Positions 25,461-32,820 of a stretch of 64,000 nt of DNA are shown here, piece after piece. The position numbers and the translations under genes were made by a program. Each line of letters opens with the position of its first letter. The first letter of the stretch is position 1. Under the pieces are notes generated by a model that saw only the letters and a program-made list of their open reading frames with translations, did not search any database and had not been told where the DNA came from. Origin of the DNA: an uncultured Candidatus Saccharibacteria bacterium (GTDB taxonomy: Bacteria > Patescibacteriota > Minisyncoccia > UBA6257 > 2-01-FULL-56-20); the NCBI GenBank assembly GCA_964361095.1, contig CAYHZA010000003.1, positions 31,773-95,772 of the forward strand, written 5' to 3'.

Positions 25461-26816
25461 TTACTTCGCTGCGTTATAAATCGCGGATACTTCGGCGGCG
25501 GTAAGGGCTCGGTTATATACGCGGAGCTCGTCAAATGTCGCATTGACTACCGGATTACCTCCGGAGATACGGTCTCCGATACTATACCCAAGGTTTGTTT
25601 CGGGAACTATGCTCGTTATTGATGTCGTACTAAAAACCAATCCGCCGTTATTGTACAAACTCGTCGTCTGACCATTCCAAACGACTGCAACATGCGTCCA
25701 TAACGGGGAAACAGCACCGAGCCCCGTTAGGGCTTTGTAGGAAGCAGAGTTGTGATAATACTGGACATTATCCGAATCGGTTCCAAACGCAAATCCGTGC
25801 TCGTTAAACGGAAGTGTCGAATAGTAATCACCGTAAATAAATCCGGCGGCAGAAGTTCGAACAACCCATAAACTCATACTTATGGAACTCGACGCGTAAA
25901 GAGATGGGCTGTTTGCAATTTGCGCGGCACACGACACTCCGCAACTCGCACCATTGAACCTCGCCGCGCCGCCGACTTTTCCCGTAACCCATGTCCACGT
26001 TGGCGTAGCCAAGAAAGCATGGTTGCTGTTCCCCGAAGTATCGGCAATCGTACTTCCGCTTCCGTCGTCAAACTTCCAATAACCGACCAGTCCCGTCGCT
26101 TGCGTCCATAAATTCACGCTGTTTCCGACTTCAAAACGGGTGGGATCGGTGCCCCCGTCGCCTGCCGAAGATAACTTAATAAATTTTGACGACTCAAGAA
26201 GCGCCGAGGCGATCACAAAACGCCCGTCGGCAACATAGCTGTAATAATATCCCGAAGTGGTGCTGTTTATCGGATCGATCGGTAGCGCGGAAAGCGGCGA
26301 TCCAGCCGAAAAGGTTTTGAAATTTATCGGCACCCACCCCGTACCATTAACACTCTGCAACGTTGAGGACGCGGTGCAGTGATATTTCCATCCCGGAGGA
26401 AGTGTCGAGGGTGACGGACCAACCCCAGTGCAATCGGTCCCCGCGGTCGTCGTGGCATTCGGATCAGCAATCGAAATATACACCGTCTGACTCAAGCCTA
26501 ACGACTGCTCCACACCATAGATTCCCAAGGCCTTACCCAAACTATTCATCTGCGCGAGGCGTTTCGTATCGCGCGTTTGGCGAAAAAGTTCAACGGGATC
26601 CAACACTAAAATAATGGCTACGGAGAGTACCGCGATAACGCCGATTACAATTAAAAGCTCAATCAGGGTAAACCCCGTTAGAGAATGATGATTTTCTTTA
26701 TTTTTCCGAAAGTATCGGGGTCTATCCCAGTACTCCAACTTCTCTAACGGGGTAAATCCCCTTTTTCGATTCCCCATGCCTCGCAAAGACAAAAATTGCA
26801 TAAATAGTATATTCAT
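25461..26816 (-). CDS. type IV pilin-like protein with a C-terminal LamG/ConA-like lectin domain
   Basis: TG|FTLIELLIVIGVIAVL prepilin motif. The C-terminus (RFNGASCGVSCAA...LWTHVAVVWNGQTTSLYNNG...FDELRVYNRALTAAEVSAIY) is a LamG signature. Confidence 0.7.
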   Translation of the reverse strand: MNILFMQFLSLRGMGNRKRGFTPLEKLEYWDRPRYFRKNKENHHSLTGFTLIELLIVIGVIAVLSVAIILVLDPVELFRQTRDTKRLAQMNSLGKALGIYGVEQSLGLSQTVYISIADPNATTTAGTDCTGVGPSPSTLPPGWKYHCTASSTLQSVNGTGWVPINFKTFSAGSPLSALPIDPINSTTSGYYYSYVADGRFVIASALLESSKFIKLSSAGDGGTDPTRFEVGNSVNLWTQATGLVGYWKFDDGSGSTIADTSGNSNHAFLATPTWTWVTGKVGGAARFNGASCGVSCAAQIANSPSLYASSSISMSLWVVRTSAAGFIYGDYYSTLPFNEHGFAFGTDSDNVQYYHNSASYKALTGLGAVSPLWTHVAVVWNGQTTSLYNNGGLVFSTTSITSIVPETNLGYSIGDRISGGNPVVNATFDELRVYNRALTAAEVSAIYNAAK

Positions 26817-26940: not shown

Positions 26941-28713
26941 TCAGGGAAAAACTATCCCCCGAATCCGCCGTGTTCCCGCGCCAACTGCCTCTTCTTTAAC
27001 AATTTTAAATTCTTGAATCTCTGAAGTTCGATTCACATGCGGCCCGCCGCAGAATTCCTTGCTCCACGCGTTTTGTATGTCTTTACCGATAAAATAAACA
27101 TTTACCTGATCGGGATACTTCTCCTTGAAAAAGAAGAGTGCTCCCGTTTTCTCGGCTTCCGATTTCGGCAGTACTACTTTTTGCATCGGCAAATCTTCCT
27201 TTATTTTTTGATTTACGATTTCCTCCACTTTTTTGATCTCCTCGGGCGTGAGCTTTCGCGGGAATGTAAAATCGAACCTTGTCCGTTCCACCGTAATGTC
27301 AGACCCCATCTGGCGCACCTCCGGCCCTAAGACTTCGCGGAGTGCCTGCTGGAGCATATGCGTTGCGGTATGAAGTCGAGTTACTTTTTTTAACTCCTCC
27401 TCGTTCGCGGCCTTCAACTCTCCCGTATCCAACAGAAGTCCATGCCCGCCAAATTTTTTCTCCTGTCCCGCGCGGGAGATTTCTTGATGCTTTTTGAATT
27501 CTTCGTCAAAGTCTTCACGATTTAAGTTTTTTGCTTTTTCACCTCCCAATTCCTTAACTACTTCATAAGGTAATCCGTAGCTTTGAAAAAGACTAAATGC
27601 CGATTGCGTATCAACCGATTCCATTTTTTTAAGTTCGCGAAGGCCATTATCCAATGTTTTCTGAAATTTCGTACTCTCCGCGTCAAACTCCTGAACCACA
27701 ACTTCCGCATCAAGTTCGGAATAAAAATCTCCGTAGTGCTTCACCACTGAACGAATAAGTTCTTGGATGTGCGCTCCGGGATTCAAATGCGCCTGCACAA
27801 TAATCCGCCGCATAAGGCGGCGGAGAATATATCCCGCTTCTTTATTCGACGGACGCACCCCATCCGAAATTAAAAAAACAATCCCCCGCGCGTGATCCAC
27901 GAAGATTCGCCGGCTCCGCTCCGAAAGTCCGGGCGGCAAAAATTCCATACACGGAGAAAACAAATCCGTCTCGAAAATATTATTTTTTTTCTGCACCACC
28001 ATCGCAAGCCGCTCCAAGCCCATACCTGTATCAATTCCGGGCGCTTCTAATTCTTCCAAACGTTTATCGGGATGCATATAAAATTCGTTAAAAACAATAT
28101 TCCAAATTTCGATTGACTTACCCTGCGCGTTCTTTACGTAAATTTCCGTGGTCCGCCCGCACGGCCCCTCGCTTCCCGTCGGTCCCCAAAAATTATCCTC
28201 GCGCCCCATCTTTTGAATATTCGTAACCCCAAGAGATTTCCAAATTTCTTCCGAAGATGTCCAGAGTCCTTCCGATCCGGTATCTGCGGGCACATCGGAA
28301 TCACCCTTAAAAACGCTTACATAGTCGATCGTAAGCCCCATCTCTTTTGCAATAAACTCATACCCATACTGGATAGCCTCTTTTTTAAAATAGCTTGCCC
28401 CGACCTTCCCCGAAGCGTCGGGGCCACCGAACGAAAAATTCCCTAACATCTCAAAAAACGTAAGGTGCGACTCGTCCCCTACTTCATCAATGTCGGATGT
28501 TCGAAACGACTTCTGAACCGAAGTGGTGTTTTTGCTCCCAAAATCCTTCATCGGATCAGCTTTCCCCGTAAAGTACGGCTTAAACTGTTGCATTCCGGCG
28601 GTCGTCAATAAGACCGACGGATCATCGGGTATGAGCGAACTCGACGGGACGATGGTATGGCCCCGTTCTTTAAAATATTCCAAGAATTTGCGGCGGATTT
28701 CAGCTGAATTCAT
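26941..28713 (-). CDS. alaS: alanine--tRNA ligase (short form, no C-Ala domain)
   Basis: Class II AlaRS catalytic core plus editing-domain motifs HTATHMLQQALREVLG and CGGPHV. 590 aa. Confidence 0.85.
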   Translation of the reverse strand: MNSAEIRRKFLEYFKERGHTIVPSSSLIPDDPSVLLTTAGMQQFKPYFTGKADPMKDFGSKNTTSVQKSFRTSDIDEVGDESHLTFFEMLGNFSFGGPDASGKVGASYFKKEAIQYGYEFIAKEMGLTIDYVSVFKGDSDVPADTGSEGLWTSSEEIWKSLGVTNIQKMGREDNFWGPTGSEGPCGRTTEIYVKNAQGKSIEIWNIVFNEFYMHPDKRLEELEAPGIDTGMGLERLAMVVQKKNNIFETDLFSPCMEFLPPGLSERSRRIFVDHARGIVFLISDGVRPSNKEAGYILRRLMRRIIVQAHLNPGAHIQELIRSVVKHYGDFYSELDAEVVVQEFDAESTKFQKTLDNGLRELKKMESVDTQSAFSLFQSYGLPYEVVKELGGEKAKNLNREDFDEEFKKHQEISRAGQEKKFGGHGLLLDTGELKAANEEELKKVTRLHTATHMLQQALREVLGPEVRQMGSDITVERTRFDFTFPRKLTPEEIKKVEEIVNQKIKEDLPMQKVVLPKSEAEKTGALFFFKEKYPDQVNVYFIGKDIQNAWSKEFCGGPHVNRTSEIQEFKIVKEEAVGAGTRRIRGIVFP

Positions 28714-28718
28714 CTTGA

Positions 28719-29918
28719 TTATTCTAGTTTAAAATCGGCATTTATTAAAGCTTCTATTGCCTTTTTTACTTTAAACCCCTTGCAATGCCCGAGAACACCG
28801 AAATACGACTGTACCGATTGCTCGAATGAATCTTTAGTAAGCGCACCGCGCACTATTTCTAATTTACTCTCTCTTATTTTCTTTAAAATTCTTCTTCTGG
28901 TTCTTGTACGCACGATTCGATAGTGCGGCAATATAACGTAACCAAGAAAATCTATGCCCTGCGAATATTTCCGCAGAAAAATCTTTTGCGGATGCAGCGC
29001 GAGCAAAAGCGAATCCCGAAGAAAATCGGTCAATGGCGATACAAGCCGTTTAAGATGGCTCTTGTCGTGGCTTACAATAATAAAATCATCGCAATAACGA
29101 ACATAGTGTTTTTCCTTGAGTGTGTGTTTCACAAATTGATCTAATTCATTCAGATAAATATTGGCAAAAAGCTGGCTCGTTACATTTCCGAGCGGCAGTC
29201 CTTTGTCGTCTGACTTCTCAAAACTTTTTATAATGCGGCGAATAAGCCATCGTGCGCCGTCATCGTCAACCTTTCTATCTATCAATTCTAAAAGAATATT
29301 ATGATCAATGGAGTCAAAAAACTTTCTAACGTCGCATTTCAAAGCAAAACAATGCGCCGCATAATTTTTGCTCACCTTTCGTAGAAACTGCTCGAGCCGT
29401 GTAACTCCCCGATGGGTACCCTTATGCATGCGACAGGAATACGAATCAAAAATAAAACTTCTATCAAAAACAGGGTATAATACTCTAAATATTGCCTGGT
29501 GCACCACTCGGTCGCGCACTACGGCCTTATGAATATGGCGCAGTTTCGGATCGCGGACATAAAATGCGTGATAGGAGTGGTGCGTGTACGTCCGATTCCG
29601 TAACTCTTCGTGAAGTTGGAAAAGATTGTCTTCCAAGTTAAATTCAAACTCTTGGACATCGGTTTTCCTTCTCTTTCCGCGCCGAAATTCGCGCCACGCC
29701 GAAAATAAATTTTCGAGACATATAATTTTTTCAAAAATAGTATTTCCATGAACCCCCCCCCGACGGAATAACGGTGCCGCTTGTGCATAAGATTGGTGAA
29801 TTGTATAAAACGCTTTATCTCTTAGGTAAAAAAATTCCGAAACGCGATCACTTCGGCATTCATCTGAAAATCGAACAGCTTTGTCTCGATATACTCGAGC
29901 TTTCAATCTCGGCGGCAT
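28719..29918 (-). CDS. diversity-generating retroelement (DGR) reverse transcriptase
   Basis: RT motifs including LPLGNVTSQLFANIYLNELD (the DGR-specific [IL]GxxxSQ variant of QGxxxSP) and VRYCDDFIIV (YxDD). The N-terminus has LENLFSAWREFRRGKRRK. Confidence 0.8.
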   Translation of the reverse strand: MPPRLKARVYRDKAVRFSDECRSDRVSEFFYLRDKAFYTIHQSYAQAAPLFRRGGVHGNTIFEKIICLENLFSAWREFRRGKRRKTDVQEFEFNLEDNLFQLHEELRNRTYTHHSYHAFYVRDPKLRHIHKAVVRDRVVHQAIFRVLYPVFDRSFIFDSYSCRMHKGTHRGVTRLEQFLRKVSKNYAAHCFALKCDVRKFFDSIDHNILLELIDRKVDDDGARWLIRRIIKSFEKSDDKGLPLGNVTSQLFANIYLNELDQFVKHTLKEKHYVRYCDDFIIVSHDKSHLKRLVSPLTDFLRDSLLLALHPQKIFLRKYSQGIDFLGYVILPHYRIVRTRTRRRILKKIRESKLEIVRGALTKDSFEQSVQSYFGVLGHCKGFKVKKAIEALINADFKLE

Positions 29919-30118
29919 TAGAAATCAAGGAAAAGAAATCGTTTTTGCTCTCTAACGCGCGGATCAAAAATGAGGTACTCAAGCGACTTCTGCGCAACGC
30001 CCGAGAACTTTCAATTATCCATGAAAGACAATATATCAATATTGAAAAAGAATTGATAGAAATATCAAAAATGATAAACGGCTGGCTGAAGTTTTTAAAT
30101 AACAAAGAGGGTGCATGA
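29774..30118 (+). CDS. avd: Avd-like four-helix-bundle accessory protein (23S rRNA IVS protein family)
   Basis: IGELYKTLYLLGKKIPKRDHFGIHLKIEQLCLDILELSISAA matches the FPKEExFGLxSQxRRAAVSIxSNIAEG pattern. GTG start. It is on the opposite strand to the RT and TR and overlaps the RT 5' end. Confidence 0.6.
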   Translation: MPLVHKIGELYKTLYLLGKKIPKRDHFGIHLKIEQLCLDILELSISAALEIKEKKSFLLSNARIKNEVLKRLLRNARELSIIHERQYINIEKELIEISKMINGWLKFLNNKEGA

Positions 30119-30136
30119 CCCTCTTTGGCGAAACTT

Positions 30137-30252
30137 CTGCACGGACGCGGATATTGTCGTTCCGATTGTCGGGATTGTACCAGTTGACGTTCAGGTTGTC
30201 GTCGTTCCAGTTCACGTTCGGCACGTTGTCATTCGGATTCCGCGAACCTGTG
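30137..30252 (-). repeat. DGR template repeat (TR)
   Basis: 116 bp homologous to 30540-30655. In minus-strand sense it is AAC/AAT-rich (...NVNWNDDNLNVNWYNPDNRNDNIRVRAE). 25 of 27 mismatches to the VR fall on TR adenines. Confidence 0.75.
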
Positions 30253-30478
30253 TATTATCTGATTCCATCCGAATCACTGGCATTCTTTGGAAAAAATGCC
30301 TGCGTGTCCGATCTTGATCGGCATCGTTTTGGGGCATCGCACTTAGCAAACCCCCACTAGAACCAGATAAGCAGTTCCCTTGAAATATTGGCAAACCGTT
30401 ATCAAGCACTGAGTTGTATATATGCCGACCGGTTGTATTAGCCAATTTTATTTTAACCTAAAGTGTGAAGTAAAAAAA

Positions 30479-30500
30479 TGGGTTCGGCATAGCCGAACCC
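30479..30500 (-). terminator. perfect hairpin downstream of the VR (target-gene terminator and DGR-associated stem-loop)
   Basis: GGGTTCGGC ata GCCGAACCC flanked by A/T runs, about 40 nt 3' of the VR. Confidence 0.55.
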
Positions 30501-30528
30501 AAAGGTTTCAAGTTGCAAGATACAAGCG

Positions 30529-31263
30529 TTAGGGAACCACTGGACGGACGCGGATACCGTCGCTCCGACTGTCGGGATCGCCCCAGCCGACGCTCAGGTC
30601 GCCGCCGCGCCAGTCCACGCCCGGCACGCAGGCACCCGGACCCCGCGAACCCGTGCAGAGCGTGATGTTCTTCAGGTCGAGGTGTTTCCCCGTCTCCATG
30701 AAGTACTTCAGTTCATAGAGGAGCCGCTCGGGGAGTGTGATGCCTACGACACCCCGTGCTTTCGTGTTGTTTGCCGAGAGGTTCTTCAGCTCCTCGTCGG
30801 CCTCGACACGGTCGCGCACCCAGATTGCGTAGTCGTGGTCCGGCTCGCGGTCGGATTTGATCTGGTCCAAGTCCTCCGTGTACCGCCACGCCGGGAAGAG
30901 CTCTTTGCACTTTGCGAAGAGCCGGTTCGGGGTCATGCCCGCGAGAACCACGATGAGGCGGTCGAAGCCGTCCTTGTGCGTTGGAATCGCAAGACTGTCG
31001 ACGAGGCTCGAGAAGTCCTTCTCGATGCCGAAGATGTCCCGGTAGAACTCCTGCCAGGGATCCAAGAGAAGGAGCTCGGGCACGGGATAAAAGCCACTCA
31101 CTTCACGGAGAATCTCCGAGACTTTCCTGGCCCACACGCGCTTCCTTCGAACGAGTTTCTGCATCTCGGCGAAACTCATGTCGGGAATCGCTTGGATCAA
31201 AGCCGCACTCACTTCCTTGAACTGGCCTTGTGTTGCCGGACGGACAGTTTCATGCCTATGCAT
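30529..31263 (-). CDS. DGR target (variable) protein, GC-rich, with the VR at its 3' end
   Basis: 244 aa. The C-terminus ...LCTGSRGPGACVPGVDWRGGDLSVGWGDPDSRSDGIRVRPVVP is encoded by the VR (30540-30655). AAGGAGG RBS. GC content is far above neighbouring genes. Confidence 0.7.
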   Translation of the reverse strand: MHRHETVRPATQGQFKEVSAALIQAIPDMSFAEMQKLVRRKRVWARKVSEILREVSGFYPVPELLLLDPWQEFYRDIFGIEKDFSSLVDSLAIPTHKDGFDRLIVVLAGMTPNRLFAKCKELFPAWRYTEDLDQIKSDREPDHDYAIWVRDRVEADEELKNLSANNTKARGVVGITLPERLLYELKYFMETGKHLDLKNITLCTGSRGPGACVPGVDWRGGDLSVGWGDPDSRSDGIRVRPVVP

Positions 31264-31608
31264 GAGCAGTTCCTCCTTGTTTCTTGTTAAAGGCGCAAAT
31301 CCACCATGGATTCGCTTCTGTTCTTATTATAGCATGCTTTATGCAGTTTTGTCAAATCACCTCATATTATTCCAATAACCGGCGGGTTTCATTTTGCGAC
31401 GACCATAAGTGACTTCCCCCACAACTTACTGCAGATCTCCTTTTGGGTAACCATAAGTGAAGGCGAAAAAGAAATAAACGAGCGCCGTGTAGATTTTTTG
31501 AAAATAAATTTGATGGTCGGAGGCACGACGGGTACCGTCAAATTTACTCAAAAAATCAAACAAAGCGAGCAATATTTCTCTCGCCGTAACGGGTTACCCA
31601 AAAGGAGA

Positions 31609-32820
31609 TCAAAGATTCTCGAATCCCTCGAGCGCCTCCGCGCTCCGATGCTCCCGAATCCTCTCCAAAGCCTTCGCTTCGATCTGCCGGATACGCTCGC
31701 GGGTTACGCCGAAGACTTTTCCCACTTCTTCCAAGGTATGGGTCACGCCATCTTCAAGCCCAAACCGCATCGTAAGAATTTTCCGTTCGCGTTCGGTAAG
31801 ATCGGCTAAAATATTTTGTATCAAATCACGCACCAAAGCACGCGCCGCAAGCTGTGAAGGCGTCGCGTTTTTTTCGTCGGCGATAAAATCCGAAAGCGTG
31901 GAATCCTCCTCGTCTCCCACCGGCGCTTCAATAGAAAGAACTTCCTGGGAGATCTTCTGGATCTGGCGCACCTTTTCGATCTTCATTTTCATCTCCACCG
32001 AAATTTCCTCCGGAAGCGGTTCTCGCCCCAATTCCTGTATCAATTGGCGGCGCACCTGCGTATATTTCGAAATCGTCTCCACCATATGAACCGGAATGCG
32101 GATTGTCCGCGAAAAATCCGCGAGGGCACGGGTAATCGCCTGACGTATCCACCATGTGGCGTACGTTGAAAATTTAAAACCCCTTCGGTAGTCGAACTTC
32201 TCGACCGCCCGTGAGAGACCGATATTTCCCTCTTGGATAAGATCAAGAATACTCAAATTCGGCGTGCGGTTAATGTAACGCTTCGCAATGGAAACAACGA
32301 GGCGTAAATTAGCCTTCATAAGTTTCTGCCGCGCCTCCTCGTCGCTTTTTTCGGCGCGCTTCGCGAGCTCCCGCTCTTCGTCTTTCGTAAGAAGCGCCGT
32401 CCGGCCGATTTCTTTCAAATAAACCTGCACCGCGTCCGGAAGGTCGCCGTCAAAATTCAAAGCTCCCTCAAGCTCCGCCTGGCTTATCTCGTCTTCTTTC
32501 GGAATCTCGATAAGTCCGCTTGTTTCGATAACTTTGATATTCGCCTTTTCGAGCCGATTATAAATCTCCTCGAGGAACTGAACGTCTTCCTCTATCTTCG
32601 GAAAATAATACAAAATCTCGCTATCCGTCACAAAACCGCGTGGGCGTCCCTTTTCGATCAGTTCGGCAAGCGCGTCTTCGTTGATCGCGAGATGGCTCTT
32701 CGCTTTTTGCGTCTTATCTTTTTTTATCTTCTTTTTTACTTCTTTCCGATGAGACGCTTTTTTTACCAGAGTTTTTTTACGGGCATGCAGCCCTTTTTTT
32801 AAAGAGATTTTTTTCTTCAT
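31609..32820 (-). CDS. rpoD: RNA polymerase primary sigma factor
   Basis: Regions 1.2 through 4: [41 protein letters not shown]...[24 protein letters not shown]. Confidence 0.9.

Follow-up and report, generated by a model that had tools for sequence, protein, structure and literature searches.

The window analyzed here, a 64,000-nucleotide stretch of contig CAYHZA010000003.1, derives from a patescibacterium of the Hainich aquifer (well H51, 0.1-μm fraction) and carries, between positions 28719 and 31263, a diversity-generating retroelement (DGR) composed of a target gene that ends in a variable repeat (VR), a template repeat (TR), the gene avd, and a reverse transcriptase (RT) gene. A sequence-only reading of the locus had proposed a complete DGR, and all components were indeed present: RT, Avd, TR, a C-terminal VR, a lectin-fold domain, a GC-rich end that resembles an initiation of mutagenic homing (IMH) site, and a downstream hairpin. 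The genes are arranged in the B3 architecture (target-VR, TR, inverted avd, RT), whose core parts are already known for DGRs of the CPR (candidate phyla radiation) and which, as 'TR-(avd)-RT', makes up 90% of them (Wu et al. 2018, PMC5758913). In a set of 78 genomes and 80 metagenome contigs, which we retrieved via the target and the RT, the order target, TR, opposite-strand avd, and RT was seen in the ~35 loci that hold all parts. Because the gene order, the inverted avd, and the host match the published descriptions of B3 and of DGR clade 2, whose targets typically lack transmembrane segments and known domains (Roux et al. 2021, PMC8144416), the element is of a known kind and corresponds to clade 2 of that survey. 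The flanking genes are ordinary chromosomal ones (dnaG, rpoD, alaS, and genes for pilin-like LamG proteins), and the element is almost certainly a chromosomal DGR of the CPR (Patescibacteria) type. On its own, the DGR is one more addition to a well-populated CPR class and matters little; the one feature that may be new is a conserved, length-variable poly-G tract at the start of the RT gene, for which we propose a role in gating RT synthesis.

Template repeat, variable repeat, and target

The TR (30132..30252) and the VR (30535..30655), both on the minus strand, were found by a repeat search of the window to align over 121 nt at 76% identity. Read in the minus sense, 27 of the 29 mismatches lie at TR adenines, such that 27 of the 38 adenines are changed versus 2 of the 83 other bases (Fisher p = 6e-16), with the non-A positions identical at 81/83. 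Upon recounting, base by base, the 116-bp pair on which the sequence-only reading had relied (30137-30252 versus 30540-30655), we obtained 27 mismatches with 25 at TR adenines, exactly as claimed, and the adenine bias held (22 A>G, 2 A>C, and 1 A>T; 25/36 adenines versus 2/80 other bases, Fisher p = 1e-14). The two mismatches at non-A positions are T>G at 30179 and G>C at 30140. Codon positions 1 and 2 hold 35 of the 38 TR adenines, mostly within AAC and AAT codons; the TR, which had rightly been described as rich in Asn codons, reads TGSRNPNDNVPNVNWNDDNLNVNWYNPDNRNDNIRVRAEV in the target frame, and the VR closes the 244-aa open reading frame (ORF) at 30529-31263 as its last ~40 codons (roughly 38 in the sequence-only reading), reading TGSRGPGACVPGVDWRGGDLSVGWGDPDSRSDGIRVRPVV. 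Searching the 64-kb window with the full TR, as well as with 40-nt sub-windows in which A positions were ignored, returned no second VR for this TR. The TR/VR pairs of relatives are A-biased too, with A>G at 57%, A>T at 26%, and A>C at 17% when pooled over 45 pairs. In the window VR, A>G accounts for 85% of the adenine substitutions (22/26 in a 111-nt comparison), which results in a Gly/Asp/Ser-rich VR; among the relatives, only L024 and L081 have an A>G share as extreme.

At the 3' end of the VR lies an invariant GC-rich and IMH-like segment, ATCCGCGTCCGT (30544-30555). This 12-mer is identical in TR and VR, after which the two repeats diverge into CCAGTGGTTCCC in the VR and GCAGAAGTTTCG in the TR, at what would be the IMH and IMH* ends. 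The mismatch that had been noted in the GC-rich 3' end was confirmed, as the G>C change that follows ATCCGCGTCCGT at TR 30140, with the IMH roles themselves assigned by sequence likeness. Conserved directly 3' of the TR, the IMH*-like GCAGAAGTTTCG (30129..30140, minus strand) also carries the 3' strand (30130-30135) of a long-range RNA helix that we describe below. A hairpin downstream of the VR was likewise present (30479..30501, minus strand), albeit with 10 pairs rather than 9, around a 3-nt loop, and at ~33 rather than ~40 nt past the VR; because it is followed by a T7 tail, it is terminator-like and also a candidate intrinsic terminator, and it may simply be one.

The target (30529..31263, minus strand) is a variable protein of 244 aa whose N-terminal region is helical and whose C-terminal domain is C-type-lectin/FGE-like. 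In agreement with the lectin-fold tail that had been ascribed to the VR, this C-terminal domain is modeled as a C-type-lectin fold. The protein belongs to a family of more than 685 members of ~240 aa, in which every member with an organism name is patescibacterial and in which a conserved frame carries ~35 hypervariable residues at the C-terminal end. It yielded no Pfam or NCBIfam match, and its description as intracellular-looking was borne out by the lack of a signal peptide, transmembrane segment, or Pfam domain, as for CPR DGR targets (PMC8144416); in the terms of that survey, it probably falls into an 'unknown VR' class. With a promoter-like site at 31326..31355 on the minus strand (TTGACA-18-TATAAT with TG, 12/12 matches to the sigma-70 consensus) and GGAGGA directly upstream of its ATG (31263), the target looks built for high expression.

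The GC content of the target (60%, or 58% without the VR) is higher than that of the RT (40%), of avd (38%), and of the window (48%), an excess that the A>G changes of the VR explain only in part. A recent horizontal origin of the target, which this contrast might suggest, is unlikely, because a relative carries a homolog at the same rpoD-alaS position that is also GC-richer than its adjacent alaS (57% versus 45%). On contigs from Rifle and other groundwater sites (L175-L184; e.g., L175:2501-3212), a 201-aa target homolog (P0020, 60% identity) is found in the synteny dnaG-rpoD-target-alaS-LamG, with only ~105 nt to alaS and with no TR, avd, or RT at that spot; the exact protein occurs on 16 contigs. 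Either P0020 is an orphan target, or it is a target served in trans, or a cassette was inserted or lost at that spot. A 99%-identical target (P0001 on L006) was not used as a case of gene drift with a fixed VR, since all 5 of its differences are N>T changes, lie on a contig of 2x coverage, and are probably errors.

The G tract at the start of the reverse transcriptase

The avd gene (29774..30118) encodes 114 aa on the plus strand, with RT, TR, and target all on the other strand, as in B3. Its product matches PF22296 (bAvd) at 3.8e-13 and 50.3 bits, above the cut-off of 40, and NF033474 (DivGenRetAVD, 'DGR protein Avd') at 6.7e-15 and 55 bits, below the cut-off of 80. While the presence of an Avd gene beside the TR had been recognized correctly, its inversion had been missed, and the order is that of B3 and not that of Bordetella (PMC5758913).

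The conserved part of the RT (28719..29750, minus strand) comprises 343 codons plus a stop, with all catalytic motifs intact. Both the LPLGNVTSQ motif, of the [LIV]GxxxSQ form that DGR RTs have in motif 4 where others have QGxxxSP, and the YCDD box (YVRYCDDF), from which an RT of the DGR type had been proposed, are present, and LPLGNVTSQ, YCDDF, and the motif-A aspartate (LKCDVRKFFDSIDH) are invariant across 16 relatives, such that no loss of a catalytic Asp was seen. The ORF at 28719-29918 matches Pfam RVT_1 (1.9e-21), and its best solved relative is the RT of the Bordetella phage, bRT (8ub7, E = 1.2e-47). Homology to relatives and to bRT starts at HGNTIFEKI (29750), with the bRT alignment beginning at residue 5 of the segment that starts at 29750, opposite bRT residue 8. 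The 399-aa RT of the sequence-only reading hence exists as a maximal ORF reaching to 29918, but is probably over-extended, since homology begins only at ~29750. The only in-frame starts, ATG 29918 and TTG 29909, lie 53-56 codons upstream and antisense to avd, which overlaps the first 48 codons of the 399-aa ORF on the opposite strand; on reading the sequence upstream of 29918 and 29909, no Shine-Dalgarno sequence was visible.

Inside the first RT codons, 13 nt upstream of the avd start, lies a G9 homopolymer (29753..29761, minus strand; C9 on the plus strand), which is the sole G or C run of at least 7 nt in the 64-kb window. The ATG that is homologous to the RT start of the relatives (29786..29788, minus strand) is out of frame with the RT, by one base at G9, and frame arithmetic indicates that G10 or G7 would restore the frame and yield a 356-aa RT beginning MHKRHRYSVGGGVHGNTIFEKI. 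In relatives whose G-rich stretch is interrupted (GGGAGGAG or the like), this ATG is in frame with the RT, as it is in L011, which has no pure G run and reads ATGAATAATTTTGGGAGGAGAAAAAGT... from the equivalent ATG, giving MNNFGRRKSVDGNHVFEKI. The tract is placed exactly where the synthesis of full-length RT could be decided. TAnAAT is conserved 11 nt upstream of the ATG (TACAAT in the window, 29805-29800); as an RT promoter element, it would give a nearly leaderless RT mRNA, a reading that is confounded by the avd codons on the other strand.

We surveyed the tract in 106 RT loci with enough upstream sequence and sought a run in the 100 nt that precede the conserved RT N-terminus. A G7-G12 run, with a mode of 9-10, was found in 68 of the 106. 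In more than half of these (38), no upstream ATG other than an out-of-frame one, open through the run, is available; another 19 offer an in-frame ATG on the upstream side (in the window, this is solely the distal, non-homologous ATG 29918), the run is followed by the ATG in 9, and 2 lack any candidate ATG. The remaining 38 loci are tract-free, and 36 of them have an in-frame ATG. Wherever the contig is complete, the out-of-frame ('off') loci have intact RT ORFs of 315-350 codons, indicating that this class does not arise from gene decay. No such G tract in DGRs is reported in the literature that we searched, with Paul et al. 2017 and one 2026 preprint outside that search. In one relative (L018, ~1950-2000), a G11 run is directly preceded by C13AC5, with which it could pair; N's are present there, and this may be an assembly problem.

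Natural populations were compared at the level of consensus assemblies, some of them of 3-10x coverage. In the population of the window itself, the VR was identical in all assemblies, from at least 5 sequencing runs, and the tract was G9 in all recovered contigs, from at least 6 runs and two assembly pipelines. The earlier claim of 'active' hypermutation was not sustained for this copy, given the single VR in all assemblies of its own population and the out-of-frame position of the homologous RT start. The family itself diversifies in nature, and sister DGRs from the same aquifer carry 3-4 VR haplotypes each on otherwise identical genes. For a first sister population (Avd P0127, wells H41/H43), a comparison of five contigs that come from different samples, over up to 3.3 kb, showed no differences beyond 29 VR positions and the tract, whose lengths are 7, 7, 8, 8, and 10, where G9 would be in frame; the target proteins are identical outside the VR, within which ~14 residues differ. 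In a second sister population (well H51), which holds the closest relative of the window's target, the contigs differ from ~position 1000 on at 20 VR positions, at the tract, and at four single-nucleotide polymorphisms, and tract lengths are 11, 11, 11, and 9, where G10 would be in frame. In these sister populations, the tract and the VR thus make up all or nearly all differences between contigs.

The template RNA and the surroundings of the element

For 26 loci, we aligned the region that reaches from the target gene's end past the TR, predicted helices by RNAalifold, and compared them with slid-partner controls and 500 shuffles. The conserved order is TATAAT, ~190 nt of conserved sequence, the TR, the motif AGAAGTTTC, and a strong hairpin with a T-rich tail. 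In the window, TAAAAT (30450..30455, minus strand) aligns with the TATAAT conserved in the 26 loci as the putative -10 box of a TR-RNA promoter, and it is followed by the 5' structured domain of the DGR RNA (30253..30444, minus strand), in which several helices covary. Six helices were predicted, with 43 pairs for which 95.8% of cells are paired versus 34-57% in the slid controls; 29 pairs show changes on both sides versus 8-13 in the slid controls, and none of the 500 shuffles reached any of these measures. A long-range helix between GGAACU (30373-30378; GAAACU in the alignment) and AGUUUC (30130-30135) closes a loop that contains the TR, and it is the weakest of the six because it is nearly invariant, with only two covarying pairs. 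The post-TR hairpin (30103..30127), which overlaps the stop codon of avd, has 10 bp and, on the minus strand, a tail rich in T, and it recurs, together with the T-run, in 42 of 42 related loci examined; it is a candidate for both the Avd-binding stem-loop and the terminator of the TR RNA. Judging from the promoter-like and terminator-like sites at its ends, the TR RNA would be ~350 nt long, from ~30444 to ~30100. A search of the window against Rfam returned only two tRNAs at the gathering threshold and, around the TR, chance-level matches at E up to 10. We also considered, as a primer strand, a segment of the 5' domain that is complementary to the TR 3' end (AACGCAG), but this occurs in one locus only, with no covariation in the others, and is not claimed.

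In Bordetella, a stem-loop right after the TR binds Avd, and a duplex between an upstream and a downstream segment ('cPRT Stop') is required for cis-primed reverse transcription; both stem-loop and duplex were predicted for 207 out of 278 DGRs, those of CPR among them (Handa et al., bioRxiv 10.1101/2023.10.23.563531). By analogy, the post-TR hairpin and the long-range helix of the window fit this scheme. The large structured part lies 5' of the TR, as avd occupies the place of the Bordetella spacer. RT and Avd may be recruited, in these inverted-avd DGRs, by RNA elements that lie 5' of the TR, permuted relative to Bordetella.

On the RT side of the element, alaS (26941-28713) starts 5 nt past the RT and is short, with 590 aa that cover the catalytic and second additional domains only; after alaS, 25461-26816 encodes pilin-like proteins that combine a LamG domain with a methylation motif at the N-terminus. 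A short alaS and pilin-like LamG proteins are typical CPR traits. The window has no RNase H accessory gene between RT and alaS, and in the sister DGR of the L007 species (L190-L193), an RNase H gene (PF00075; ~5131-5562 in L190) overlaps the RT end by 4 nt. On the target side, a perfect 19-nt inverted repeat (GATCTCCTTTTGGGTAACC and its complement, 31434-31452 and 31592-31610) is located between the rpoD end and the target promoter, with 139 nt between its arms, one of which overlaps the rpoD stop region.

Possible roles of the tract and comparison with known systems

We propose that the target is transcribed from its own strong promoter, while a separate ~350-nt RNA would contain, from 5' to 3', the multi-helix domain, the TR, the 6-bp long-range clamp (GGAACU:AGUUUC), and the 3' hairpin. 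RT and Avd would bind this TR RNA and copy the TR with misincorporation opposite A, upon which the VR would be exchanged for the mutagenized cDNA, in the manner of the Bordetella phage DGR. The G tract would act as a slippage-prone switch or throttle on RT synthesis, either as a heritable on/off change or through transcriptional or translational slippage. The copy in the window would then be in an 'off' or low state, with G9 putting ATG 29788 out of frame and G10 restoring it. Such a state fits the invariant VR, and the activity of this copy is probably off or low at present. We put the probability of the statement as a whole, that is, a CPR-type DGR whose RT expression is gated by a poly-G tract, at roughly 0.55, where the gating is the inferred part. 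At somewhat less than even odds, a broader version may apply to a large clade of patescibacterial DGRs, in which a hypermutable poly-G in the first RT codons (in some relatives, in the promoter) would switch or throttle the RT, and bursts of VR change would alternate with periods of a frozen VR, the window being frozen at G9. To our knowledge, the regulation of DGR activity remains largely unexplained. If the tract gates the RT, this would explain how the cell keeps the cost of a constitutive mutator in check and how a favorable VR variant becomes fixed.

A number of observations weigh against such gating. G homopolymers are error-prone in consensus assemblies of the kind compared here, and the invariance of the window's VR is that of a consensus, beneath which minority variants are still possible. 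In a third sister population, two VR haplotypes share an 'off' G10 (four contigs), and a strict on/off switch would therefore need leakiness or round trips; together with the lack of an 'on' consensus in the first two populations, this favors leakiness or only transient 'on' states, while assembly would also favor clonal 'off' lineages with a fixed VR. The frames of the upstream ATG are distributed at about one third each, as expected if that ATG were irrelevant (18-19 loci in frame 0, 23-28 in frame 1, and 10-15 in frame 2). An in-frame ATG at 29918 exists with G9, such that a 399-aa RT is possible. Furthermore, nine distant relatives have the tract upstream of the RT start codon and not in coding sequence, L007 and L107 differ in the frame in which they read the motif GCGTTAAAAGTC that follows the tract, and the tract is always found 9-21 nt upstream of the avd start. 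Owing to these three observations, a role of the tract in a promoter, in an untranslated region, at the RNA level, or in relation to avd is possible. As a spacer of an RT promoter, the tract is plausible only for the nine loci with a downstream ATG, in four of which (L139, L160, L162, and L164) it is followed by TAnnAT, 7 nt, and the ATG; the window has no good -10 box after the tract. A role as a Shine-Dalgarno mimic, combined with ATT or another non-canonical start, was dropped because the spacing is inconsistent, ranging from 1 to >15 nt between loci.

In an alternative that we consider unlikely, there is no heritable switching at all, and slippage of the polymerase or the ribosome at the tract gives a small in-frame RT fraction at every tract length, that is, a throttle for which the genomic frame is irrelevant. 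The roughly uniform frames of the upstream ATG, the intact RT ORFs of the 'off' loci, and the two VR haplotypes on a shared 'off' G10 are all consistent with such a throttle, as is the fact that the diversifying sister populations are all 'off', with tract lengths of 7, 8, and 10 where 9 would be 'on', and of 9 and 11 where 10 would be. However, tract length differs between otherwise identical contigs, indicating that slippage does occur at the DNA level, and transcriptional slippage is in general less documented for G runs than for A/T runs. The loci with a tract upstream of the start codon would, moreover, be left unexplained.

Rather improbable, in our view, is a DGR that is constitutively active, in which a 399-aa RT starts at ATG 29918 (or TTG 29909) and is translated from a TR read-through transcript antisense to avd, and the tract is irrelevant to the RT here. 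With G9, the frame is indeed open back to 29918, one gene caller gave 399 aa (L002), all catalytic motifs are intact, and TR and VR agree at 81/83 non-A positions, as constitutive activity would have it. Yet the 56-codon extension has no counterpart in at least 100 relatives or in bRT, and it would have to be expressed antisense to avd, past the strong TR terminator hairpin, and without a Shine-Dalgarno sequence that could be seen. Going upstream from the tract, the RT frame of most relatives is closed after only a few codons, and a start of this kind is thus not the starting mode of the family. Constitutive activity also sits poorly with a VR that is identical in all assemblies of its own population, whereas sister systems vary. 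Least of all do we expect an inactive remnant, in which the tract frameshift would be an ordinary inactivating mutation of a decaying element. Such a remnant would fit the out-of-frame position of the homologous start, a VR that does not vary across samples, the two non-A positions at which TR and VR differ, and a relative in which the target is found at the same chromosomal site while TR-avd-RT is absent. However, the RT retains 343 codons without a stop and every invariant residue of the family, avd, the TR-RNA helices, the promoter, and the terminator are all intact, and the same 'defect' recurs with intact RT ORFs in 38 independent lineages, which is unlike decay.

Upon comparison with published systems, the element shares with the CPR DGRs of the B3 type (PMC5758913) and of clade 2 (PMC8144416) its gene order, the inverted avd, a patescibacterial groundwater host, a small target without a transmembrane segment or known domain, and an A-biased TR/VR pair. 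Nothing differs in the core, whereas neither the poly-G where avd and RT meet nor the structured 5' domain of the TR RNA is mentioned in the literature searched, which again leaves Paul et al. 2017 outside it. With the DGR of Bordetella phage BPP-1 (mtd-avd-TR-brt), it has in common an RT of which bRT is the closest solved relative, Avd, adenine mutagenesis, and a C-terminal VR on a C-type-lectin fold; the post-VR hairpin of the window, which may just be a terminator, is placed about where Bordetella carries its post-IMH hairpin. Unlike in BPP-1, avd lies on the other strand, between TR and RT, so that the 140-nt spacer found downstream of the TR in Bordetella is missing; the large structured part of the RNA is 5' of the TR, and the post-TR hairpin seems to mark where this RNA ends. 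The window element is, furthermore, chromosomal, and its target is intracellular-looking and not a phage tail fiber. The variable proteins Treponema TvpA, Thermus TaqVP, and Legionella LdtA differ from the window target, which has no lipoprotein or secretion signal, carries an unrelated N-terminal helical region, and has no family match with them at the sequence level.

Simple-sequence contingency loci are known from the poly-G/poly-C tracts of Neisseria, Haemophilus, and Campylobacter and of the Bordetella fim promoters. The tract described here resembles these in that 7-12 G form a homopolymer within the first codons or the promoter, with a frame that depends on its length, and relatives of the window with interrupted tracts are locked in frame. 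Length polymorphism between otherwise identical assembled sequences, as seen in two sister populations and not in the third or in the window's own, would be a further likeness. In the present case, the gated gene would be a mutator, namely, the RT of a DGR, in contrast to the surface structures and restriction-modification systems that are gated at contingency loci.

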